Assembly: GCA_030622115.1 (NCBI GenBank)
Contig: JAUXGN010000008.1
Span: 8,185 to 72,184, forward strand
Direction of reading: 5' to 3'
Source of the DNA: Candidatus Eiseniibacteriota bacterium
Lineage (GTDB): Bacteria; Joyebacterota; Joyebacteria; Joyebacterales; Joyebacteraceae
DNA: 64,000 nt
The translations under genes and the position numbers were made by a program. Shown here piece by piece: positions 1-40,641 of this stretch. The notes beneath the pieces are model-generated. The model made no database searches. It was not told the origin of the DNA and worked only from the letters and a program-made list of their open reading frames with translations. The first letter of the stretch is position 1, and the number at the start of each line of letters is the position of its first letter.

Positions 1-2
1 GA

Positions 3-437
3 TGTCTCGTGATGGACGAATTCGACATGCTTGGCGACGTCGCCGGCTGTCGGCTGATCCACAACACATTCCTCGGCTGGTTCTACTACGAGGCAGAGGA
101 CGCCTCACCCTACAGCGCGATTCGGAGCAACATCTTCGACTGGTATACGACCATCATCGGGCCGATGGACAACAGCAATCTGGCGCTGACCCACAATGAC
201 TTCGCGTTCGAGCCGTGGACGCACGTCTCGGCGGGGGCGGATTCGTTCTTCGCCAACCTCTGGTACGAGGATCCACGATTCTGTGGATCCGACCACACGA
301 TAGAGGATTGCTCGCCGTGTGTGCTGGCGGCCCACGACGGCGACGACATCGGAGCCTTCGGTGTCGGTTGTGAGTGCACGCTACCGAACACGGTCGAGAC
401 GATGTCGTGGGGGAGGATCAAAGGATTGTACAGGTAG
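3..437 (+). CDS. hypothetical protein, C-terminal fragment (gene runs off 5' window edge)
   Basis: Open frame continuous from window start to stop at 437; Cys-containing C-terminal domain, no recognisable catalytic motif. Confidence 0.3.
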   Translation, partial: CLVMDEFDMLGDVAGCRLIHNTFLGWFYYEAEDASPYSAIRSNIFDWYTTIIGPMDNSNLALTHNDFAFEPWTHVSAGADSFFANLWYEDPRFCGSDHTIEDCSPCVLAAHDGDDIGAFGVGCECTLPNTVETMSWGRIKGLYR

Positions 438-7480: not shown

Positions 7481-10400
7481 ATGAACAACGAGAGACATGA
7501 TAACGCGCCGGGACGCGAGATGTTGAAAGCGTTCGAGAAGGTGCTTGAGTCGCGAAGCGGCAGAGATGCGGCAGTCGCGGCGATTCGCCTGGGCGATGTC
7601 TATCTCGAATCCGACAGCTACACTGATGCGCTGAGCTATTTCGAACGGGCCGAGGCCGGTGAGCTTCGCGAGAAGCTCACCGACCCTGAGGCCGCCTGCC
7701 TTCTGGTCGGCATTGCGAAGTGTCACCTCGGTCTTGGTAGCTACGACGACGCCAGACGCACCTGCGCGAAACTTGACGATCTCGATCTCAGTGAAGATGA
7801 TGGGTCAGCGTGGGCCGAAGCGAACATCGTGGTCGCCCGCGTGGAGATCGAGAGCGGTCGCTACGATGAGGCGTTGCGGGCAGCCCGGAAGGCCTACGAG
7901 ATCCTGAGGACAAGGCCCGACAGCCCGCTTCTGGCTGAGGCAGGCAAGAACCTTGGTGTCGCGAATGCCGAACTGGGCAACATCAAGGCGGCCCGCGACT
8001 ACTTCACCGACTACCTCGTAACACAGAAACGCCTCGGTGATGAGGCCGGACTCGCTTCCGCCTACAACAACCTCGGCGTGCTGGCCAAGCGATCGGGCGA
8101 CTTCCACGGGGCACTTGAGTACATCGAAGACGCTCTCACCATCGACCGCAAGCTTGGTCGCTCGATGGCGATCGCCGATCGTCTGACGAACCTCGGTATC
8201 ATCCTCTACAAGCTCTCTCGCTGGGGCGAAGCGGAAGAGAAGCTCAACGAAGCTCGCTCGCTCTACGGACAGATCGGAGCGACTCGCGGTCTCGTGGCCG
8301 CGGAGTCCGCGCTCGGCAACATCTTCCGCGTGCGGCGCGAGTGGGGTGAAGCGCAGAGACTCTTCCAGAACGCTCTCTCGGCGAGTCAGGAGAAGGGGTA
8401 CTTGAGGGCCGAAGCTCTGGCTCTCGAATTCATGGGTCATCTGGAGATGGACCGTGGAGAGCACGAGGAAGCGTTGAGGAAGTTCAACCGAGCGCTTGGG
8501 TGCGCGTACAGGCTATCGTCGAACAGCGATGTTGTAGGTGAAGTACTGAGAAGGCGCGCCCAGGTCTATTTGGAACTCGGTCGGCTCGATGAGGCGGAGC
8601 GAGATTGCTCCGACGGCATCAAGCTCACCCGTGAGATCGGTGATAGCCTTGAAGAGGGTGCGACCCTCCGTGTTCTCGCAAGCGTCTGCTATGCCAAGGG
8701 CGAACGGACGGCCGCTGAGGTCCTCATCCACAGGGCCGAAGAGATACTGCGTCGCATCGGAGAATCGTTCGAGCTGGCAAGGGCCGCGCTCGCGGATGGT
8801 ATAGGCCTCAGAGAATCGTCGATCGGGGATGAACCACCAATCGATCTGATCGAGGCCAGGCTCTCGTCCGCTGCCGCGATCTTTGCCCGGATAGCCCTAC
8901 CGAACTGGGTGGCGCGGTGTGAACTCGAACGCGGCAAGGCGCTCAAGGCGAGCGGACTGCCCGATCGCGCACGCAGGTGGTTTGAGGGTGCAAGACTCAG
9001 GTTTGAGGCGGCGCACGACAGCCACGGTCTTGCGGAGATCGACGCCGCGCTTATGGAGTTGGACACGATTCTGGCAGACGCGGGGATCGCGCGCCAGGGT
9101 CGGTACGCGTTGATCGTTGGAGGCTACAGGTTTCTTGAGACGACGCAGCCGAGTCCCGATGATCTTCATCGTTTTGCCGGAGAGCTGGCAAACGCTCTGT
9201 CCGCAGATCGGCTGGTTCTTCTTCAGGTTGCCGATGGAAGAGCGACGTCAGTGACGACTTCGGTCGACAGGACGGGAAGAGGTGTATCGGACGTGAGCCG
9301 TTTCGTGCGCACGACCGTTTCGAGGCGGGGTCATTCTCGACCTCTCGTTGTCAGCAACGGACACTCCGACGGCGCCTTCACCCAACCCGAAGTGGGCGCG
9401 CTGGCGCTCCTGCCGGTGGAAGTCGGCCTCGACCGCGAGCAAGTCTACCTTGTGTACGCGGATCGCTCTCGAGGGGACAGGTCGGTAGCGTTTGCGCAGA
9501 GCGACGTGGAATTCCTGAGTGCGTCAGGCCGCGTGCTTGGGCTTACCCACTCGCGGGTCGGTGGGACCATGGTCACACGTTCGACCGGGCAGGAGGCCGA
9601 CAAGCTGCTTGGCTCCGCTGAGACGATCGGACTCATCACCCGAAGTCCAGAGATGATTCAGATACTCGCGACGATCGAACAACTGGAGGGCAGTCGCGTG
9701 CCGGTTCTCATTAGAGGAGAATCCGGCGTAGGCAAGGAGCTGGTCGCGAAGGCTATCCACTTCGGTAGCAGGACGGCGACCGGGAGGTTCGTGGCCCTGA
9801 ACTCCGGCGCCATCGCTCCAAACCTCCAGGAGAGCGAACTCTTCGGCCATGTCCGGGGCGCCTTCACGGATGCCGATCGCGACCGACAGGGTCTGGTCGA
9901 GGCTGCGGCGGATGGGACGCTCTTCCTTGACGAGATAGGTGAGATGAGCCCCGGGCTTCAGGTGAAGCTTCTGAGATTCCTGCAGAACGGTGAATTCCGG
10001 CGGGTGGGAGAGAGCGTCACGAGGACGAGCAATGCCCGCGTCGTCTCGGCTACAAACAAGGACCTCCGGGACGAGGTCGAGAGCGGTGCGTTCAGACGGG
10101 ATCTCTTTTACAGACTCTGTGCCATTACGATAGAAGTACCTCCGCTCAGGGAGCGTCGGGAAGACATCCCGGCGCTGATGGACCATTTCCTTGAGCACTA
10201 CGCGAAGCGGGAGGGGAAGACGATCCCCGGGTTCACGCGGGAAGTCAGAGAGCTTTTCCTGAGGCATGGATGGATGGGGAACAACGTGCGGGAGTTGGAA
10301 AACGAGGTCCGCCGCGGCGTTGCCCTGACCAAGAGCGGCGAGGCCATCGGTATAGACAAGATGAGTCCAGAGATCAGAATTCGTGTTGATGTGGGTACGG

Positions 10401-17596: not shown

Positions 17597-19570
17597 TTGT
17601 CCTTGCTCTCCTTATCTCTCCTGGTGTCTAATCGGAAACTGGTGTGTTGTGTCCTGCGCGGCCTGTTCATTGCAGTGGGCCGCGTGCGGGAGTGTGTCGA
17701 GATGGTCTCCCGGGAGTTCAGCTTGAGAAGATCCCGAGTCACATATATCCCCATCACGTCGATCATCGTCGGCGTCTTCATTGTCGCGGCCGTGGTCGTG
17801 TTCACGTCGATGCGCGATATTGAAAGAGGGCGGCAGCACGTGGCGGACGGCATGGAGCGCAAGGCAGGCGCCATGCTGATGTTTCTGAACACTGATCTCA
17901 GGACCGAACTCGTGTCTCCGCGGTGGCAGCTGTCACGTCTTGAGTTCTTTCTCTCCGAAGCTGCCAATCGCAGCCAGGCCGAGTACCTTGCCCTTCTCGA
18001 TTCCGACGGAACCGTTGTCGCGCACAGCGACACTGCAATGGTAGGAGCGCCTCATATCGGTTGGCTGCCGGTCGAGGACAGGCCGGAGGCGTCACCCATT
18101 CACAGGAAGCGCGTTACAATCGAAGGGCGTACCTTCCAGCAGTACGTGGCGGCCTTTGACATACATCCGGCGATGCTATGCGAACCGCCGCCACGACGAT
18201 TCGGCCGCGGAATGAGGCCGCACTGCGACATCCAGGCAGTCGGCCTACGCCTGTCTGAACTTTTGGGAAGGCCGGTCGACCTGTTGCGCCCAACGCGCCT
18301 CTACGGTGTGGTGGCGCTCGATCCCACGGAGATAGAGGCGACGTTCGCTCTCTCTCGCAATCGCACCATTCTTCTCGCCGTCGTCCTGATCCTGGTCGGC
18401 GGCGCCGCAATCTACTTCCTCTTCGTGACATCCGCGTACCGTTCAACGCAGACGGCGCTCGCCAACATGCGTACGTATACGGAAAACGTCATTGAGAGCA
18501 TGGCGAACGGGCTGATATCCGTCGACGCGGATGGGCGCGTCGTGACCGTGAACTCGCGGGCGCGCAATCTGTTTGGATTGGGCAATGCGGACGTGGCTGG
18601 ACGAGGTCTCGACGATGTGGCCGGCCTCGAGCCCGGCCCTGAGCGGGCGGGAGTGGACCTCGTGCTGCGGGGCGAAAAGGACATAGTGGAAGTGGAAACG
18701 ACTGCCGTCATCGGACGGGAGAAGATTCCTGTTTCGGTCAGCGCATCGTTGCTTCGGGACGAGGATGGAGAGCGAGCGGGGACGGTTCTGCTCTACCAGG
18801 ACCTGCGAGAGATCGAGGCGCTCAAGGGAGAGTTGGAGCGAGGACGTCACCTCGCCTCTCTGGGCAGGTTGGCGGCCGGTGTGGCTCACGAGGTGCGGAA
18901 TCCCCTGAGTTCCATCAAGGGGTTCGCGCAGTTCCTCCGCAGCAAGTTCAGCCCGGGGTCTGAGGAGGAACGATACTCGGACATCATGATCGAAGAGGTT
19001 GAACGACTTGATCGAGTCGTGCAGGAGCTGCTTGATTTCGCGAAGCCTGTGGTTGCTGAGATCGGCGCCAGCGACACGAACGCCATCGTCGAAGACGCGC
19101 TCTCGCTCGTGTCGGAGGACGCTGATTTCAAGAACGTCAGGATTGTCACCGAGCTGGCCGAGGAGCTGCCGCGCATCCTCGTGGATGCGAGACAAGTGCG
19201 CCAGGCGCTTCTCAACGTGCTTCTGAACGGAATGGAAGCGATGGGAGACGGCGGGACGCTCAAGGTGACAACGACGATCGTTGCTCCCGAGCGTGGTGCG
19301 GCGCCGGCGAGCGCGGATGCGCGACCGGAGCAGATTGCGATTGATGTCACAGACACAGGTGACGGGATGACCGAGCAGGAACAGGTGAAGCTGTTCGAGC
19401 CGTTCTACACGACGAAGCCAACGGGGACCGGGCTCGGATTGACGATAGTCTCGCGGCTCGTGGAGCAGAACGGCGGCCACATCCATGTGACGAGCGCGAA
19501 GGGGAAGGGGACCACGTTCTCGATGGTGTTCAGCACATCCCCCGGGGAATCAGGTGGAGGCTCGCGCTAG
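17597..19570 (+). CDS. sensor histidine kinase (NtrB/ZraS/AtoS-like; TM + PAS + HisKA + HATPase_c)
   Basis: H-box AHEVRNPLSSIKGF, N-box LLNVLLNGMEAM, DTGDGM, GTGLGL; PAS-like NGLISVDADGRVVTVNSRARNLFG; likely true start at Met 17702 followed by TM helix. Confidence 0.85.
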   Translation: MSLLSLSLLVSNRKLVCCVLRGLFIAVGRVRECVEMVSREFSLRRSRVTYIPITSIIVGVFIVAAVVVFTSMRDIERGRQHVADGMERKAGAMLMFLNTDLRTELVSPRWQLSRLEFFLSEAANRSQAEYLALLDSDGTVVAHSDTAMVGAPHIGWLPVEDRPEASPIHRKRVTIEGRTFQQYVAAFDIHPAMLCEPPPRRFGRGMRPHCDIQAVGLRLSELLGRPVDLLRPTRLYGVVALDPTEIEATFALSRNRTILLAVVLILVGGAAIYFLFVTSAYRSTQTALANMRTYTENVIESMANGLISVDADGRVVTVNSRARNLFGLGNADVAGRGLDDVAGLEPGPERAGVDLVLRGEKDIVEVETTAVIGREKIPVSVSASLLRDEDGERAGTVLLYQDLREIEALKGELERGRHLASLGRLAAGVAHEVRNPLSSIKGFAQFLRSKFSPGSEEERYSDIMIEEVERLDRVVQELLDFAKPVVAEIGASDTNAIVEDALSLVSEDADFKNVRIVTELAEELPRILVDARQVRQALLNVLLNGMEAMGDGGTLKVTTTIVAPERGAAPASADARPEQIAIDVTDTGDGMTEQEQVKLFEPFYTTKPTGTGLGLTIVSRLVEQNGGHIHVTSAKGKGTTFSMVFSTSPGESGGGSR

Positions 19571-19641
19571 CGGCTATCCTGTCGGGGCAGCGTGCAGTGT
19601 CCGGGTGGTGAGCATTCGAGTGTATCGGGGAGCATTTCCGA

Positions 19642-20982
19642 ATGGCAGAAAGTCATCTCAGAATCCTGGTGGTCGATGACCAGTCGAGTGTGCGTGAGCT
19701 TCTCAAGGCCGTGCTTGGGAGCGATGGTCATACGGTAGAAACTACACCCGATGGCGAGAGCGGCATCCGCACACTGGCCGAGGGATTTCACGACCTGGTC
19801 ATAATGGACATTCGGATGCCGGGCATCGACGGTGTTGAGGCCCTGAGAAGGATGAAGAAGGCAAGCCCCGACTGCGGCGTCATCATGATGACGGCCTACG
19901 CATCGGTCGAGACCGCGGTCGAGGCCATGAAGCTTGGGGCATTCGACTACATCACAAAGCCGATAGATATCAATGAGGTCCGCTCGATCATCTCAAGGTT
20001 CACCGACGAGTCATCCAAGACGCTTGAGGAGAGACCACCTGAGATCGAGCCATCGAGTGAGATTATCGGGGTGAGCGTCGCGATGCGGGACGTGTTGGAA
20101 ATGGCCCGCCGCGTAGCCGCGAGCGATGCTACGGTTCTCATCCTCGGCGAAAGCGGGACAGGCAAGGAGTTGGTCGCGCACGAGGTGCACGGGGCGAGCC
20201 CGCGCGAGCGCAAGCCGTTCGTTGCGGTGAACTGCTCGGCTATTCCTGGAGGGCTTCTCGAGAGTGAGCTGTTCGGTCACGAGAAGGGCGCCTTCACGGG
20301 GGCGGGGCGGCAGAAGCGGGGGCGGTTCGAACTTGCAGAAGGCGGGACGATCTTCCTGGATGAGATCGGTGACATGTCGTCCGAGCTGCAGGCCAAGCTG
20401 CTGCGATTCCTGCAGGATCATACCCTTCAGCGCGTGGGCGGATCGACCGACATCACCGTCGACGTCAGGATAGTGGCCGCGACCAATCGGGATCTGGACG
20501 CGGCTGTCGCCGACGGCAGCTTTCGTGAGGACCTGTATTTCAGACTCAGTGTGGTGAACATTACAATACCGCCGCTCAGAGACCGCAAGGAGGACATACC
20601 ACTCCTTGTGGAGCACTTCCTCAAGAAACACTCCGAGAGGGGCTCCAGGCCGAAGAGGATGTCACCCAAGGCGATGCGGGTCATGATGAACTACGACTGG
20701 CCTGGGAACGTCAGGGAACTGGAGAACGCGATACACCGCGCCGTGATTCTCTCTCGTGGAGAGACCGTCTTCCCCGAGCAACTTCCTGCCAAGCTCCAAG
20801 CGGTTCTTGACTCCGATGTCGGTGGAGAGAAGACGGGTGTGACGATCCGTGAGATGGAGCGAGACATCATCATCAAAACCCTCGCGCAGACCGGGGGCAA
20901 CAGGACTCACTCTGCGAAGATCCTGGGCATCTCGCGCAGAACCCTCCAGAACAAGATCAAAGAGTACGAGATCGAATCCTGA
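19642..20982 (+). CDS. sigma54-dependent two-component response regulator (NtrC/ZraR/AtoC family)
   Basis: Receiver domain (ILVVDDQ...[11 protein letters not shown]), AAA+ [15 protein letters not shown], canonical GAFTGA, C-terminal [25 protein letters not shown]. Confidence 0.9.
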
Positions 20983-21159
20983 CCGCGCAGATTCTGCGCA
21001 CCTCCAGCTGGTCCATCTCCTGAAATGGGCAATTCCTTCACGCCGGGGCTTCCGCGAAGCTCTGAATGCGCGTCTCATCTGAGAAAAATGATCGTGTAAC
21101 ATCTGGTGACTGCCGATGTTATGTCACTCGGACGGAAGTCCCACACCACCTGGGCACGG

Positions 21160-21176
21160 TTGGCACCTCGGTTGCT
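21160..21176 (+). promoter_or_regulatory. sigma54 promoter TTGGCACCTCGGTTGCT upstream of zraP-like gene
   Basis: Exact match to TGGCAC-N5-TTGC with GG/GC spacing 12; inverted repeats GTGAC-N12-GTCAC and TGTAACATC...GATGTTATG at 21098-21145 as possible activator sites. Confidence 0.6.
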
Positions 21177-21311
21177 GTAAGAGGGGTGTGTGAAGATTCC
21201 TCCGGCCGGCATCACGATGCACCACGCGGCTGACGGTGCTGGCCGGAAGGACACACAAGGAACAGAGAAACCAGGGAGGAAAAGACCTCCTACTTCCGAA
21301 GGGAGAAGACG

Positions 21312-21926
21312 ATGAGCGGGAAGAAAGGCCTCATAACAGTAGTGGTGCTGGCTCTGGTGATGGCAACGATGGCTGTCGTTCCGGCCGCGGGCAGACCTGG
21401 ACGGTCCGGAGCGATGCATGGGCCCATGGGCGGCGGCATGCGCGGGGGTCCAATGGGTCGCGGGGTAATGCCGGCGTTCACCGAGGCGCAGCAGGAGAAA
21501 ATGCAGGAGATCCGGAGCAGCTTTGACGAAGAACGTGTGGAACTCGTGAACAGGATCAAGGTCATGCATCTTGAGATGCGCGATCTCGTGACGGGCGACA
21601 ACCCCGACTTCGGGAAGATCGAGCGCTTGATCGACGACATCTCGGACGAGCGCGCCAAGATGATGAAGATTAGGATCCGTCAGCACGTTGCGGTCCGGGG
21701 GATCCTGACCGATGACCAGAAGGTGCTGTTTGACCAGGGCCTTGAGGCGCGGATGGGCCAGTTCATGGGCGGCCCTGGAATGATGGGTCGTCCTGGAACG
21801 ATGGGCGGCAGGCCGGGTGGCGAGATGATGGGTGGTCGCGGTGGAATGAGCAGCGGTCCGGGCGGCGCGAGGGCAGGTGGCTTTGGCGGGCGCATGATGG
21901 GCATGCCGGGCGGAACGGGAATCTAG
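21312..21926 (+). CDS. periplasmic Spy/CpxP/ZraP-family (LTxxQ) protein with Met/Gly-rich termini
   Basis: GGGAGAAG RBS; signal peptide; two LTxxQ-type motifs (FTEAQQEKMQEI, LTDDQKVLFDQ); N- and C-terminal (M)GG(R)MMG repeats. Confidence 0.65.
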   Translation: MSGKKGLITVVVLALVMATMAVVPAAGRPGRSGAMHGPMGGGMRGGPMGRGVMPAFTEAQQEKMQEIRSSFDEERVELVNRIKVMHLEMRDLVTGDNPDFGKIERLIDDISDERAKMMKIRIRQHVAVRGILTDDQKVLFDQGLEARMGQFMGGPGMMGRPGTMGGRPGGEMMGGRGGMSSGPGGARAGGFGGRMMGMPGGTGI

Positions 21927-22149
21927 GAAGTCACTCGCTTCGAGCGAGTGAACCGGCGCGAGTCGCATCGTAAGGGTTGTCGCAATAGATCGCGGCAAGA
22001 GCGACTCGCTCCCCCCCCCAACAGCGGGCGGCCTCCACGGGAGAGGCCGTCCGCTTTCCTCTTGTGTGTCTCAATGCCAACTACCTATACTGCCGGACGA
22101 ACCGTGTCCGCGTGGGGCTCGGGAGCATTCAAACCCGGGGAGGCACCAA

Positions 22150-24723: not shown

Positions 24724-26094
24724 ATGAAATCACGCATTGAGCAGGTGATGAAGAAGTTCGCCGACAAGTGCGACTACCTTGAGGTTCATTTCGAAGAGAC
24801 TGAGGAGTCCCGCATAGGTTTCACCGGTCCGCGACTGTCGGATCTGGGCCGCAGAGTGGATTTCGGCGGGAATGTGCGCGCCCTCCACAGAGGTGGATGG
24901 GGTTTTGCGTCATTCAACAGCGTAGACCGCCTCGAGGAGTTCGCGCAGTACGCGATCGATCAGGCCAGGACCGTCGGGAAGGGAACGAGTCAACTTGCCG
25001 AGATCGAGCCGGTGGTGGCGGACGTTCCTCTCGAGCTCAAGAGCGATCCACGCGACATTTCCCTGGAGAACAAGGTCGAGATAATGCGGGCGTACAGCGA
25101 ACGCGCACTCGGCTTCAGTGATTCCATCACGAGTTCATTGGTCACATGCTTCGATCGCTTCCACAGGTTCTGGTTTGGCAGCAGCGAAGGCAGCCTCGTC
25201 TACCAGGAGCGCGTCGATATCGGAGGGCGCGTGACTCCGGTGGCGACACGCGACGGGGACACCCAAGGCTACAGCGTCGGCTTCGGCGGGAGCGACGACT
25301 TCAGTGTGGTCAAGGGGCTCGAAAGAGAGATCGACCATGCCTGTGAGGTCGCTGTGGGCAAGCTGGACGCGCCCAAGATCAAGGGAGGAGAGTACACGGT
25401 TATCCTCGACCCGCGGCTCGCCGGTGTCTTCGTTCATGAGGCGTTTGGGCACTTGTCCGAGGGCGACAACGTGTACGAAGACAAGAATCTCCAGAAGGTC
25501 ATGCAGCTTGGGAGAAGATTCGGCAAGAGCTTCCTCAACGTGTACGACACAGGGTTGGATAGAGGCTTGCGGGGTCACCTCGTCTATGACGATGAGGGCG
25601 TGCCGACCGAGAAGACGTACCTGATCCGGGAGGGCGAGCTGGTCGGAAGGCTTCACTCGCGCGAGACCGCAGGCAAGATGGGGGAGAAGCCGACAGGCAG
25701 TGCGCGATGTCTCGACTACCGTTTCCCGCCGATCCCGCGGATGCGCAACACGTGCATTGCTGCAGGAGAGGCCACGTTCGATGAGATGATCGCCGGTGTC
25801 GATCACGGCGTCTACTGCATTTCCGCATCGGGTGGGCAGACGAACGGCGAGATGTTCACGTTCACGGCCGCCAACGCCCGGATGATCTGTGGTGGAAAGC
25901 TGGCGGAGCAGGTTCGAGACGTGACGCTCACCGGAAATGTCTTCACCACTCTCGAGAATATTGATCTCCTGGCAAACGACCTGGCCGCGCACGACGGGGG
26001 TGGGGGATGCGGCAAGGCGGGGCAGTTCCCGCTGCCTGTCACCCATGGCTCTCCGCACGTCAGGATTCAGGGCGTCGTGATTGGAGGTGAGTAG
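24724..26094 (+). CDS. tldD: TldD-family metalloprotease
   Basis: HEAFGH (HExxxH) motif, GxC...GNV C-terminal region, ~455 aa, paired with PmbA-like gene. Confidence 0.8.
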   Translation: MKSRIEQVMKKFADKCDYLEVHFEETEESRIGFTGPRLSDLGRRVDFGGNVRALHRGGWGFASFNSVDRLEEFAQYAIDQARTVGKGTSQLAEIEPVVADVPLELKSDPRDISLENKVEIMRAYSERALGFSDSITSSLVTCFDRFHRFWFGSSEGSLVYQERVDIGGRVTPVATRDGDTQGYSVGFGGSDDFSVVKGLEREIDHACEVAVGKLDAPKIKGGEYTVILDPRLAGVFVHEAFGHLSEGDNVYEDKNLQKVMQLGRRFGKSFLNVYDTGLDRGLRGHLVYDDEGVPTEKTYLIREGELVGRLHSRETAGKMGEKPTGSARCLDYRFPPIPRMRNTCIAAGEATFDEMIAGVDHGVYCISASGGQTNGEMFTFTAANARMICGGKLAEQVRDVTLTGNVFTTLENIDLLANDLAAHDGGGGCGKAGQFPLPVTHGSPHVRIQGVVIGGE

Positions 26095-26095
26095 G

Positions 26096-27442
26096 GTGAA
26101 GAGGATCATTGAGAAAGTTCTCAGCAAGGGGGCAGCCAGGGCCGAGGTCTTCTACCTGAACTCGCTCCAGACAGAAGTGAGCTACGAGGCCGGACGACTC
26201 AAGGAGCTGGCCAACACCGAAGAGACCGGTGTCGCTCTCAGGTTGGTCAAGGATGGGAAGCTGGGCTTTGCCACGACAACGAAGCTCACTCACCTGGATC
26301 GGCTTGTGGACGATGCGCTCGCAACGGCGTCATGCGGCGGCGAGATGGAGTTCAATTTCGCCGTTGCCGGGGGACTGCCCGACTCCCGGTGTTTCGATGA
26401 GACCGTCGCGGAACTCTCCGTCGATGAGATGATGAAACACTCGGAAGCAGGTATTGCGCATCTGCTCGACTACGAGAAGGACATCCTGACGGAGTCGGGA
26501 ACGGCACGCGACATGCAGACGATCCACGTCCTCAACTCGGACGGCGTCGATGCGAAGTTCGAGCGGACTCAATATCAGTTCTACATCCACGGGCGGCTGG
26601 TTGAGGGCACGAACATGCTCGATGCGGGCGCCTATTTCGGCGGCACGGCGCTGGACGTCGATTTTGACCAGCTGTACGAGAGGGCCGTGGACGACTTCAG
26701 AAGCGCGCGGACGAACGTGGATCTGGCTACCGGACCAACCACCGTCGTGCTCACGCCCAGAGCCGTCGCCGACATCATGCTCACTCTCAACTTCGGCGTC
26801 AGCGGAGCCTACGTCGAACAGGGCATCTCTCCTCTGGTCGGAAAGCTGGGGAGGCCCATCTTCGATGAGAGGATAACGATTCGCGACGACGGTCTGAGAT
26901 CCGGCGGGTACAGGTCGGCGCCCTTTGACGACGAGGGTGTTCCGATGCAGACAACAACACTTGTAGAGTCGGGCGTGCTCAGGAGCTATCTGACCGACCT
27001 CAGAACGGCGCGCAAGCTGAACCATGCGGATACGGGGAACGGACTCAAGGCGAAGCGTCTCGTCGGTACGAAAGAGCTGGGCAAGTCTCCGGCGCCCGAG
27101 ATCACGAACTGGGTGATGGAGGGAGGGGAGAAGCCGCACGAGGAACTCCTCTCCAATGTGGGCAGCGGCGTGCTTGTCGACAGCATCATGGGTCTTCTGA
27201 TGTCCAATCTTATCGCCGGCGAGTTCGGTGGAAACCTGGCATACGGACTCAAAATTGAGGACGGCAAAACGACCGGCAGAGTGAAGGACGCCATGATCTC
27301 CGGCAATGTCTACAAGCTGTTCAAATCCAATCTGGTCGCACTATCCAAGGACGTCGAACTGACGGGGCTCCTTGGCGGTATCGGAACTCACTGGTACCCG
27401 TACGTGGTCCTGAGAAACGTCACGATCGCGACGAAGTCGTAG
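26096..27442 (+). CDS. pmbA: PmbA/TldE-family protein (TldD partner)
   Basis: TldD/PmbA fold without HExxxH; start placed at GTG after GGAGGTGA RBS; overlaps tldD 3' end. Confidence 0.75.
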   Translation: MKRIIEKVLSKGAARAEVFYLNSLQTEVSYEAGRLKELANTEETGVALRLVKDGKLGFATTTKLTHLDRLVDDALATASCGGEMEFNFAVAGGLPDSRCFDETVAELSVDEMMKHSEAGIAHLLDYEKDILTESGTARDMQTIHVLNSDGVDAKFERTQYQFYIHGRLVEGTNMLDAGAYFGGTALDVDFDQLYERAVDDFRSARTNVDLATGPTTVVLTPRAVADIMLTLNFGVSGAYVEQGISPLVGKLGRPIFDERITIRDDGLRSGGYRSAPFDDEGVPMQTTTLVESGVLRSYLTDLRTARKLNHADTGNGLKAKRLVGTKELGKSPAPEITNWVMEGGEKPHEELLSNVGSGVLVDSIMGLLMSNLIAGEFGGNLAYGLKIEDGKTTGRVKDAMISGNVYKLFKSNLVALSKDVELTGLLGGIGTHWYPYVVLRNVTIATKS

Positions 27443-33387: not shown

Positions 33388-34017
33388 ATGAAGATACTCC
33401 GACGGTCGATCATAGGAGTCACCGTGCTTCTGCTTGGCGCGGGGCTTGCTGTACCGGCGCTCGCCGCAATTGGGTGCGGCGCTGTGGGGGAAGCCCATGA
33501 GAACAGCGACGGTACGTACACGTACACTGTTCTGCTCACGTGGGAATTCGGTGAGGCCGCGAGGCCCGATCGGATCAACTTGAGCATCGAGCATCTGATG
33601 GGCTGCGGCTTCTACGATCCCCAGGATCCCGTGCAGCAGGACTACATCATTGCCCACGAGGGCTACTCGGAGCCCGATGGCGAGTGCTTCGATCTCTCAG
33701 GCGAGCCGGCGGAGGATATCGTGTGGGTGGGTGGACTTGCCATGGATGACCCGGACTGCTGGATGCCGGTGCTGCATCTCTTCTGGGAGAACAGCGGGCC
33801 GACCATCGAGTGCCTCCCGCTGGGCAATGGGTCAGCCACCATCTCGTTCACATCGTACGGTCTTCCGATGGAGTCGCAGATCTACTATGGGGCGATCGTC
33901 ATCAAGGCCGGAGACTACTGTATCGTTTGCGACTACGAAGGACCGCTTCCCGACTGCAACAACTGGGCGCCGGTCGAGGATTCTCACTGGGGTCTGATCA
34001 AGGCGCTGTACAAGTAG
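33388..34017 (+). CDS. Cys-rich secreted hypothetical protein
   Basis: Signal peptide MKILRRSIIGVTVLLLGAGLAVPALAA; 10 Cys; no family recognised. Confidence 0.45.
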   Translation: MKILRRSIIGVTVLLLGAGLAVPALAAIGCGAVGEAHENSDGTYTYTVLLTWEFGEAARPDRINLSIEHLMGCGFYDPQDPVQQDYIIAHEGYSEPDGECFDLSGEPAEDIVWVGGLAMDDPDCWMPVLHLFWENSGPTIECLPLGNGSATISFTSYGLPMESQIYYGAIVIKAGDYCIVCDYEGPLPDCNNWAPVEDSHWGLIKALYK

Positions 34018-39840: not shown

Positions 39841-40641
39841 CTAGGGTGTCCTTGGGTCGGCGGGAACGAGACCGCCCTCTTCCCACTGCAGCATGTGAAA
39901 GCCTGATGCGTTGAGTTCGACGACGGCGCGATTGGCCATCCAGTCTCCGACGATGATGGCGGTCCCACCGCTTCGTTCCCACAGTCGCGGGGTGTGGATG
40001 TGCCCAACGATTGCGGCGTCGAATCCTTCGTCGAGCTTGTCAAACAGGAAGCTCTTCATCGATGGAATGGCACGTTCTATACGGGCATCGTTGATCGTCG
40101 AGAGGCCGGACGCCCAGCGTGCGATTGCCGAGCCGACCGAAGGGGGCAGAAGGCGAAACGCTGCGATCGCCGGCCCGCTCCGAATGACGGCCTTGAGCAT
40201 ACGGTAGGCCCAGTCCCCAGCCGGGAGACCGTCACCGTGTGCGATGAAGAGCCTGCTGCCGAAATGCGTCACCGTGACCGGATCCCGTGAGACAACGGCG
40301 CGCGAGCGGCGCTCGAAGACTGCCCCGGCCCAGTAATCGTGGTTGCCACCAAGAAACGTGATGGAGACGCCGGATTCAGCCAACGCAGAGAGAGCATTGA
40401 GAACGGCAAGATGCTCGGGAGGCCCCGCCGTCCGGAACTCGAACCAGAAATCGAAGAGGTCTCCAGCGATATAGAGATTGCAGGCTCTTCCGCGAAGGTA
40501 GCCGAGAAGATCGCAGAGGGCCTTGACCTTTGCATCTTCAGTGGCCTTGTCCTCGATTCCGAGATGCGCATCAGCGATGAAGAATACGCTCTCGGCGGGC
40601 GTCTGAAGCCGTGAAGATGGCATGTCACTTGCTCCACTCAT
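39841..40641 (-). CDS. lpxH: UDP-2,3-diacylglucosamine hydrolase LpxH-like metallophosphoesterase
   Basis: FIADAHLG, GDLFDFW, GNHD calcineurin-like/LpxH motifs; start placed at MSGASD rather than longer upstream ORF. Confidence 0.65.
   Translation of the reverse strand: MSGASDMPSSRLQTPAESVFFIADAHLGIEDKATEDAKVKALCDLLGYLRGRACNLYIAGDLFDFWFEFRTAGPPEHLAVLNALSALAESGVSITFLGGNHDYWAGAVFERRSRAVVSRDPVTVTHFGSRLFIAHGDGLPAGDWAYRMLKAVIRSGPAIAAFRLLPPSVGSAIARWASGLSTINDARIERAIPSMKSFLFDKLDEGFDAAIVGHIHTPRLWERSGGTAIIVGDWMANRAVVELNASGFHMLQWEEGGLVPADPRTP

Follow-up and report, generated by a model that had tools for sequence, protein, structure and literature searches.

A two-component module in an Eisenbacteria genome

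The window analysed here, a 64 kb stretch of DNA to whose positions all coordinates refer, belongs to an uncultured Eisenbacteria genome and carries a three-gene circuit on its plus strand, namely genes for a sensor histidine kinase, a response regulator and a small periplasmic protein, hereafter called the accessory protein (Table 1). This gene anatomy had been proposed in an earlier note on the same DNA, which described a histidine kinase, an NtrC-type regulator and a signal-peptide protein, and it is borne out by the list of open reading frames (ORFs) and by Pfam scans. We consider that the three genes probably form a self-contained Zra-type circuit that depends on sigma-54 and serves the response to envelope stress, possibly metal stress. 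As such, the module is a well-preserved but ordinary relative of ZraPSR, the envelope-stress system of E. coli, genuine and cleanly delimited, and not a new kind of system.

About 55 relatives of the accessory protein were detectable, all of them from metagenomes or metagenome-assembled genomes (MAGs). A scan of species-representative genomes gave 22 loci, designated by L numbers in the following, and in 15 of these the gene was linked to a two-component system (TCS); ten of the 15 are labelled Candidatus Eisenbacteria, the remainder being unclassified MAGs. Promoter and upstream dyad were compared between 17 distinct TCS-linked loci (Candidatus Eisenbacteria or unclassified MAGs) and seven relatives without a TCS, while the alignment of the upstream regions comprised 16 loci with a mean column identity of 56%.

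A conserved predicted sigma-54 promoter with a single upstream dyad

The sequence TTGGCACCTCGGTTGCT at 21160-21176 contains a -24/-12 promoter element that the earlier note had described as an exact consensus. Indeed, TGGCAC-N5-TTGCW finds one exact match in the 64 kb sequence and four matches when up to one mismatch is allowed, compared with 1.17 expected. A -24/-12 element (GG-N10-GC, 0-1 mismatch) lies directly upstream of the accessory gene in 17/17 TCS-linked loci and in 0/7 relatives without a TCS, and it is thus more than a product of chance. Two invariant islands stand out in the 16-locus alignment, namely this element, with the invariant columns TGGC..C...GTTGC, and a dyad farther upstream. 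Given that a motif of 12 specified bases may arise by chance, at the frequency just stated, the match might still be accidental, with transcription of the accessory gene not linked to the regulator next to it. However, the element is kept at the same place despite the diverged flanks, is absent from every TCS-less relative and recurs in modules outside the clade, so that a fortuitous match is extremely improbable. We thus regard the predicted promoter as convincing on comparative data. From the standard sigma-54 spacing, transcription is predicted to start near 21186-21187.

The dyad has TGCG-N9-CGCA geometry and the clade consensus G-N-G-N-A-G-N3-CTGCGCA, with GGTG(C/T)GAAGAACCTGCGCACC in other subclades. 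In the window, the T of the -24 element lies 161 nt from its 3' end and 176 nt from its 5' end. A single copy of the pattern exists in the whole window, and likewise one in each TCS-linked locus, where its distance to the downstream -24 element is always 161-181 nt. At three loci in which a gene of 1.1-1.3 kb separates the regulator gene from the accessory gene, the dyad stays with the promoter and not with the regulator gene. Since it is present once per locus and moves with the promoter upon gene insertion, the dyad is likely to be the activator site, a candidate for binding by the response regulator. The same 17-bp dyad geometry is known from NtrC sites. We rejected the notion that the dyad might be the terminator of the regulator gene, as it is not followed by a T-run, is more than 1.3 kb away from the regulator gene where another gene is inserted, and varies in its left arm but keeps the sequence of its right arm. 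Extra copies, as would be expected of a larger regulon, were sought in the window and the loci, and none was found save one minus-strand match inside the kinase coding region of L004/L019. A second candidate site, CGCGAAG...TGCGCG at about 21052-21073, was discarded because it is not conserved across loci.

The small inverted repeat that the earlier note had placed 20-60 bp upstream of the promoter does exist (arms TAACATC at 21098-21104 and GATGTTA at 21116-21122). Both arms are kept in the closest subclade only, 'GTAAC' alone persisting in a third subclade, and the element that is maintained across the clade is the dyad. The repeat may be a site for a bending protein or a secondary site. Further sigma-54-like sites, with one mismatch each, were seen on the plus strand at 33435-33450 (TGGCGCGGGGCTTGCT) and 40618-40633 (TGGCATGTCACTTGCT).

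Downstream of the promoter, the predicted sigma-54 transcript has a leader of ~125 nt, with a conserved stem-loop near its 5' end. RNAalifold analysis of nine loci gave 20 pairs, seven of them with compensatory changes such as UA to GC (columns 19/70) and AU to GC (29/59), and the single sequence folds at -52 kcal/mol (z = -3.7). The stem-loop is conserved in two subclades; in a third, this position is taken by a hairpin of another sequence. A search of the leader against Rfam returned no family. The stem-loop probably stabilises the mRNA or tunes its translation. As a strong terminator-like hairpin follows at 22023-22055, the accessory gene looks monocistronic.

Table 1 Features of the module, in window positions (kinase domain positions were derived in the coordinates of the 657-aa ORF that starts at TTG; residues are those of the accessory protein)
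Feature	Position	Strand	Basis or remark
Sensor histidine kinase	17702..19570	+	Pfam PAS_4, HisKA, HATPase_c; open frame from TTG 17597
Kinase, first transmembrane segment (TM1)	about 17741-17812	+	read from sequence
Kinase, periplasmic ZraS-type domain	about 17813-18361	+	profile comparison to ZraS
Kinase, second transmembrane segment (TM2)	about 18362-18436	+	read from sequence
Kinase, cytoplasmic PAS	18482-18811	+	Pfam PAS_4, residues 300-405 of the TTG ORF
Kinase, HisKA	18860-19045	+	Pfam
Kinase, HATPase_c	19184-19531	+	Pfam
NtrC-family sigma-54 enhancer-binding response regulator (REC, AAA+ with GAFTGA, lid, Fis-type helix-turn-helix)	19642..20982	+	Pfam
Candidate upstream activating sequence, dyad GCGCAGATTCTGCGCA	20985..21000	+	invariant island, 16-locus alignment
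Small inverted repeat TAACATC-N11-GATGTTA	21098..21122	+	read from sequence; A/T-richer patch between dyad and promoter
Predicted sigma-54 promoter, -24 TGGCAC / -12 TTGCT	21161..21176	+	only exact match in window; conserved
Conserved leader stem-loop, ~15 bp	21198..21251	+	RNAalifold, 9 loci
Second small leader hairpin	21274-21291	+	
Shine-Dalgarno AGGGAG	21300-21305	+	
Periplasmic accessory protein, 204 aa	21312..21926	+	PF13801, PF07813
Accessory protein, Sec signal peptide	residues ~1-26		
Accessory protein, disordered Gly/Met N-segment	residues 27-55		
Accessory protein, three-helix Spy/ZraP/CpxP-fold core	residues 56-152		
Accessory protein, disordered Gly/Met/Arg/Pro C-tail	residues 153-204		
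Perfect 8-bp hairpin CACTCGCT-TCG-AGCGAGTG	about 21931-21949	+	read from sequence
Terminator-like hairpin, 13 pairs (10 G-C), then T-rich tract	22023..22055	+	terminator scan

Kinase and response regulator

The kinase ORF (17597-19570) was recognised by the Pfam profiles PAS_4 (54 bits), HisKA (61.3 bits) and HATPase_c (81.1 bits). Alignments to homologues begin at residues 39-48 of the frame opened by TTG 17597, and ATG 17702 is therefore the likelier start. When a profile of the N-terminal 256 residues was compared with residues 1-238 of E. coli ZraS by hhalign, the two matched with a probability of 99.5% (E 1.4e-22) over 208 columns that run from TM1 to TM2 (ZraS residues 24-232). Furthermore, the more distant HMMER matches of the sensor, which carry weak sCache_3_2, share the signature EKG.ALIR..EAG.RTGM...RW....Y..I.D..G.ILAHSDP..VG, and this is also visible in E. 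coli ZraS. On the strength of the profile match and the common signature we assign the sensor as a divergent ZraS-type domain, homologous to the periplasmic domain of E. coli ZraS. The window kinase is itself a divergent member of the sensor profile, connected to more ZraS-like members at phmmer E 6e-5 or better, and an exhaustive HMMER search of 1.84e9 representative proteins showed the periplasmic domain to be clade-restricted, with 13 proteins at E <= 1e-3.

Pairwise comparison by BLASTP gave 41% identity to ZraS in the kinase core only, the match between the periplasmic region and ZraS being not significant (E 0.22). Against the PDB, the sensor profile retrieved no solved ZraS periplasmic domain and only weak Cache/PDC matches (DcuS, methyl-accepting chemotaxis proteins, E about 0.3). 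A search of a word-indexed protein database with the sensor region alone returned nothing despite the existing orthologues, which is probably a candidate-retrieval artefact of words rich in transmembrane residues. The JGI pipeline labels many orthologues of the kinase 'HydH', and the NCBIfam AtoS model scored 326 bits, above the ZraS model.

The assignment of the response regulator to the NtrC family with a canonical GAFTGA motif, made in the earlier note, agrees with the Pfam matches (Response_reg 110.8, Sigma54_activat 241.6, AAA_lid_14 98.4 and HTH_8 56.5 bits), and the motif itself is readable in the translation. Over its full length (440 residues), the protein shares 46% identity with E. 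coli ZraR. It is closer to the regulator of L038, an out-of-clade locus discussed below, with 52% identity and a nearly identical helix-turn-helix. Among the NCBIfam models, AtoC (510.5 bits), NtrC (489) and ZraR (447.4) all scored below their own equivalog cut-offs.

The accessory protein belongs to the Spy/CpxP/ZraP/CnrX superfamily

The proposal that the 204-aa protein is of the LTxxQ family was upheld by the profile PF07813 LTXXQ, which recognised it with 33.0 bits (cut-off 24.3), alongside PF13801 Metal_resist with 59.7 bits (cut-off 29.2). Of the two LTxxQ motifs that had been described, LTDDQ (residue 132) is literal, while the first reads FTEAQ (residue 56) and has the form FTxxQ in nearly the whole family. 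AlphaFold2, run on a 50-sequence alignment, modelled the core (residues ~55-152) with a predicted local distance difference test score (pLDDT) above 90, whereas the tails fell below 50 and the signal peptide was low as well. A Foldseek search of the PDB with this model yielded as the top 38 matches exclusively CpxP, Spy, ZraP, CnrX or a Salmonella VirG-like protein; Salmonella ZraP 3lay was aligned at a root-mean-square deviation of 1.3-1.8 A (TMt 0.78-0.86). The family profile, compared with PDB sequences, matched Spy (E 1.4e-9), ZraP (1.4e-7), CnrX (7e-4) and CpxP (3e-3). The protein is thus securely placed in the Spy/CpxP/ZraP/CnrX fold superfamily, the assignment to a single branch not being secure: it keeps an LTDDQ third helix like Spy and CpxP, and its regulatory context is that of ZraP. 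BLASTP against E. coli ZraP gave 20% identity (E 0.023), and the NCBIfam scores for Spy (NF007769, 36.7 bits vs 174) and CpxP (NF009391, 31.4 vs 148) lie below their cut-offs. Automatic pipelines label the small protein 'Spy/CpxP family chaperone'.

The terminal repeats rich in Met and Gly that had been noticed earlier are reflected in the composition of the C-tail, whose 58 residues include 11 Met and 25 Gly with neither His nor Cys. Across the family the C-tails measure 46-89 residues, with ~19% Met and ~40% Gly and frequent insertions and deletions among orthologues; from these alignments, long Met/Gly tails are a family trait. In the literature, nothing was found on Met-rich LTXXQ proteins. 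The unusually long disordered tails would make these accessory proteins a convenient system for asking what the tails of ZraP-like proteins bind, clients or metals.

Relation to known systems

In ZraPSR (HydH/HydG plus ZraP; E. coli, Salmonella), ZraR activates sigma-54 promoters in front of both zraP and zraSR; ZraP, a periplasmic chaperone dependent on zinc, represses ZraSR (PMC4987338). The window module shares with it the ZraS-type periplasmic sensor domain, the NtrC-family GAFTGA regulator and a sigma-54 promoter before a small periplasmic PF13801 protein, the last of these at the level of sequence. Moreover, the helical-hairpin core of the accessory protein is superposable on ZraP 3lay, both proteins have Gly/Met-rich termini, and each circuit has a single local target. 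The likeness to zraSR/zraP that the earlier note had drawn thus holds for the sigma-54 circuit and fails for the layout: E. coli zraP is divergent from zraSR, whereas the window gene lies downstream and co-directional, without the ZraPSR-type layout with a shared enhancer. The window protein also differs from E. coli ZraP in keeping the LTDDQ third helix, which the latter lacks, and in tails that are two to three times longer.

Several observations weigh against the reading as a Zra-type circuit. None of the three window proteins reaches the corresponding NCBIfam equivalog cut-off, the scores being 268.9 bits for the kinase against ZraS (NF007688, cut-off 479), 447.4 bits for the regulator against ZraR (NF007689, cut-off 760) and 16.2 bits for the accessory protein against ZraP (NF008584, cut-off 200). 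The kinase has an extra cytoplasmic PAS domain, whereas ZraS has none and instead a simple alpha-helical linker (PMC12314577). On the plus strand upstream of the kinase gene, no GG-N10-GC element with up to two mismatches was found, and Zra-style autoregulation of the kinase operon is therefore not evident. The sequence of the dyad is unlike the inverted repeats of the E. coli zraP-zraS intergenic region, and no other strongly conserved dyad was found; many enhancer-binding proteins, by contrast, rely on at least two sites. As the window tail contains no His or Cys, ZraP-like Zn binding cannot be assumed. Finally, all genomes involved are uncultured MAGs.

The same gene order and orientation were encountered outside the clade, in L038 (Deltaproteobacteria MAG RBG_13_52_11) and L040. 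In both, a PAS-containing kinase is 35% identical to the window kinase over 96-97% of the length, a sigma-54 promoter stands directly upstream of a PF13801 gene (TGGCATGGCTATTGCT and TGGCACGGCCATTGCT, respectively), and a TGCG-N9-(C/T)GCA dyad precedes the promoter, at a distance of 111-114 nt vs 161-181 nt in the clade. Their accessory proteins likewise have an N-terminal segment rich in Gly and Met, and also in Tyr, but are only about 20% identical to that of the window and, at 168 aa, shorter, with a higher content of Tyr and Cys; the long hairpin is missing from their leader, which is short. By published description, the window module can also be likened to a ZraSR/ZraP-type sigma-54 regulon of Desulfovibrio vulgaris, in which DVU3382-81 and DVU3384 are under the control of DVU3381 and which is termed an 'envelope stress response' (PMC4641369).

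Spy is the best sequence-profile match of the accessory protein in the PDB, and Spy and CpxP resemble it in their three-helix core with a C-terminal LTxxQ-type motif and, in the proposed circuit, as periplasmic, stress-induced proteins. Nevertheless, spy and cpxP are driven by OmpR-family regulators (BaeR, CpxR) at sigma-70 promoters and not by a sigma-54 activator, and the aligned Spy/CpxP chains have no long Met/Gly tails. CnrX/NccX belong to the same superfamily by fold (Foldseek TMt 0.70-0.76). The partners of CnrX are an anti-sigma/ECF (extracytoplasmic function) sigma pair (CnrYH), whereas no ECF sigma or anti-sigma gene occurs in the neighbourhood of the module, and the identity to CnrX is 11-16%.

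The module thereby extends the Zra/Cpx logic, in which a kinase and an activator are joined by a periplasmic Spy-family modulator expressed from a dedicated promoter, to the uncultured phylum Candidatus Eisenbacteria. It adds concrete cis-elements, namely the predicted sigma-54 promoter, a single conserved dyad and a conserved leader hairpin, and the TGCG-N9-CGCA dyad geometry is common to two out-of-clade MAG loci, one of them labelled Deltaproteobacteria. It is a good example of phylogenetic footprinting and does not overturn current understanding.

Proposed mechanism

In the circuit that we infer, the membrane-bound kinase would sense a periplasmic cue, such as metal ions or misfolded envelope proteins, through its ZraS-type alpha/beta (sCache-like) domain, relay the signal through the additional cytoplasmic PAS domain to the kinase core and phosphorylate the NtrC-type regulator. 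The latter would bind the dyad and, by DNA looping and with ATP, open the sigma-54 closed complex at the promoter, the firing of which should give a monocistronic mRNA with a hairpin-capped leader. Exported via its Sec signal peptide, the accessory protein could then act in the periplasm as an ATP-independent Spy/ZraP-like holdase, as a metal buffer, or as both, using its helical cradle, with the disordered Met/Gly-rich tails supplying a flexible surface for the binding of clients or soft metals. By analogy with ZraP and CpxP, it probably damps its own kinase.

Metal resistance and a link to peptide export as less likely alternatives

The same genes could instead constitute a dedicated Cu(I)/Ag(I) resistance system, in which the Met-rich tails would be a periplasmic copper/silver sponge and the kinase a metal sensor rather than a general sensor of envelope stress. 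The family-wide composition of the tails speaks for this, as does the window copy with Met but without His or Cys; furthermore, PF13801 is a 'heavy-metal resistance' family, the accessory fold also matches the metal sensor CnrX, and, for ZraP, tighter binding of Cu(II) than of Zn(II) has been cited (PMC8836040). Several related loci have a CutA1 (divalent-cation tolerance) gene two positions downstream of that for the accessory protein (L007 12952-13275, L008 9828-10166, L013 9928-10266; not in the window), and a multicopper oxidase gene (L038 12568-13728) is found about 2.8 kb from the L038 module, both being weak hints at a metal context. Yet the Met residues, as read from the sequence, stand in MMG/GMG runs within Gly/Arg/Pro-rich disorder with no evident regular MxxM-type motif, and the free indel variation of tail length and sequence fits defined metal sites less well than a role set by composition, for instance as a flexible surface for client binding. 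No copper export genes (P-type ATPase, CusCBA, CopA/B) were present among the called genes of the related loci, and a Gly/Met tail of this kind is also found on the chaperone ZraP of E. coli. This last point also bears on the earlier note, which had contrasted the Met-rich repeats with a His/Gly-rich ZraP tail and suggested a different metal. The contrast was overstated: the E. coli ZraP tail, GIPRGAGMGMGYGGCGGGGHMGMGHW, is Gly/Met-rich with His and Cys, and the tail contains 1-6 His and 0-4 Cys in almost every orthologue of the window protein, so that the window copy is unusual in having none. Relative to the orthologues, its C-tail (21768-21923) has lost all of these residues, with, for example, RPG in place of HPG and MSSGPGG in place of MNCGPGG, Met being the only remaining potential soft ligand. 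Tail composition alone does not indicate another metal, and the suggestion is a weak one. Binding of copper or silver by the accessory protein is possible; a dedicated resistance system appears unlikely.

A second alternative arises from the putative cluster for a ribosomally synthesised and post-translationally modified peptide (RiPP) upstream of the kinase. According to this proposal, the TCS would sense the exported Cys-rich peptide of the radical-SAM cluster, or envelope damage caused by it, and the LTXXQ-type protein would be a producer self-protection or quality-control factor of the biosynthetic cluster. In every Eisenbacteria locus recovered, the kinase gene does follow a radical-SAM gene, two peptide genes, an FG-GAP gene and an ABC exporter in the same orientation, and a terminator scan detected no strong terminator between the exporter (end 17543) and the kinase. 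TldD/PmbA-type proteases are encoded a few genes downstream, and a response of enteric ZraPSR to envelope damage that antimicrobial peptides cause has been reported (PMC4987338). However, adjacency, on which the earlier note had based the idea that the TCS senses peptide-caused envelope stress, is uninformative, because ~20 kb on both sides are collinear within Eisenbacteria, including unrelated genes, and the collinearity runs about 10 kb further on each side to genes such as those for OsmC, archease, RtcB and PolX; the link is thus unsupported. The conserved dyad is confined to the promoter of the accessory gene and was in no case seen upstream of the RiPP genes, and no sigma-54 element was found upstream of the radical-SAM/RiPP genes in L004, L005 and L007. 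In one Eisenbacteria MAG, a Fic-domain gene (L024 2708-4021, motif HAFGDGNGRTAR) separates the ABC-2 permease of the exporter from the kinase. Moreover, L038 and L040 have the same order of kinase, regulator, promoter and PF13801 gene beside genes for SecDF and dihydroorotase, and RiPP genes are absent within 6 kb. The restriction of the dyad, the Fic insertion and the RiPP-free modules outside the clade, taken as comparative observations, point to an independent unit. A circuit coupled to the peptide is accordingly quite improbable, and it is less probable still that the module is a functional part of an Eisenbacteria-conserved radical-SAM RiPP cluster, with the kinase detecting the Cys-rich peptide or periplasmic intermediates and the Spy-like protein acting as a holdase or immunity factor. 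If it were, a sigma-54 feedback loop would be wired into natural-product export. The Zra-type envelope-stress circuit remains the reading that we prefer.

Gene neighbourhood and variants of the locus

Every sufficiently long contig contained the same gene block, across identities of 44-83%. It begins with the radical-SAM enzyme, two small peptides, the FG-GAP protein, the ABC ATPase and the ABC-2 permease, continues with the kinase, the response regulator, the accessory protein, a xanthine/uracil-type permease and CutA1 (both not always present) and an outer-membrane beta-barrel, and ends with OsmC and two TldD/PmbA proteins; archease, RtcB and PolX follow further downstream. In the window, the putative RiPP cluster occupies 11522-17543; equivalents are present in L002-L005 and L007, and the cluster is syntenic across Eisenbacteria. 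The 895-aa radical-SAM protein has a long N-terminal extension, and DDLVDLREDL can be read in its translation. Of the two small peptide ORFs, both Cys-rich, one ends at 14345 (...CFVDYSQCPSSDLCWILDVGCGCEQHDNCFVDTG) and the other at 14551 (...CYIFVDWGDCGSVDQCGFDFGSCGNRDVCLVDY). The FG-GAP/beta-propeller protein and the ABC-2 exporter come next, and the two TldD/PmbA-type genes lie downstream of the module at 24724-27442. Sigma-54 sites with two mismatches upstream of the radical-SAM/RiPP genes (window 10988, L002 395) were rejected as chance matches at non-equivalent positions.

In L039, an out-of-clade kinase-regulator pair is followed by ~850 nt (9058-9905) without a called gene or recognisable PF13801 ORF, where the sole sigma-54-like site is TGGTACAGAATTTGCG at 9230, with two mismatches. 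The gene inserted between the regulator and the accessory gene in one subclade encodes 352-378 aa (L008 6064-7122; L013 5937-7073, with a CBM96 match; L028). In L010 (7047-9345), a distant relative of the accessory protein (33% identical) is encoded immediately after an ECF sigma factor gene and a pair of small ORFs and adjoins an ABC/OEP export system, a context that resembles the CnrX type rather than the Zra type.

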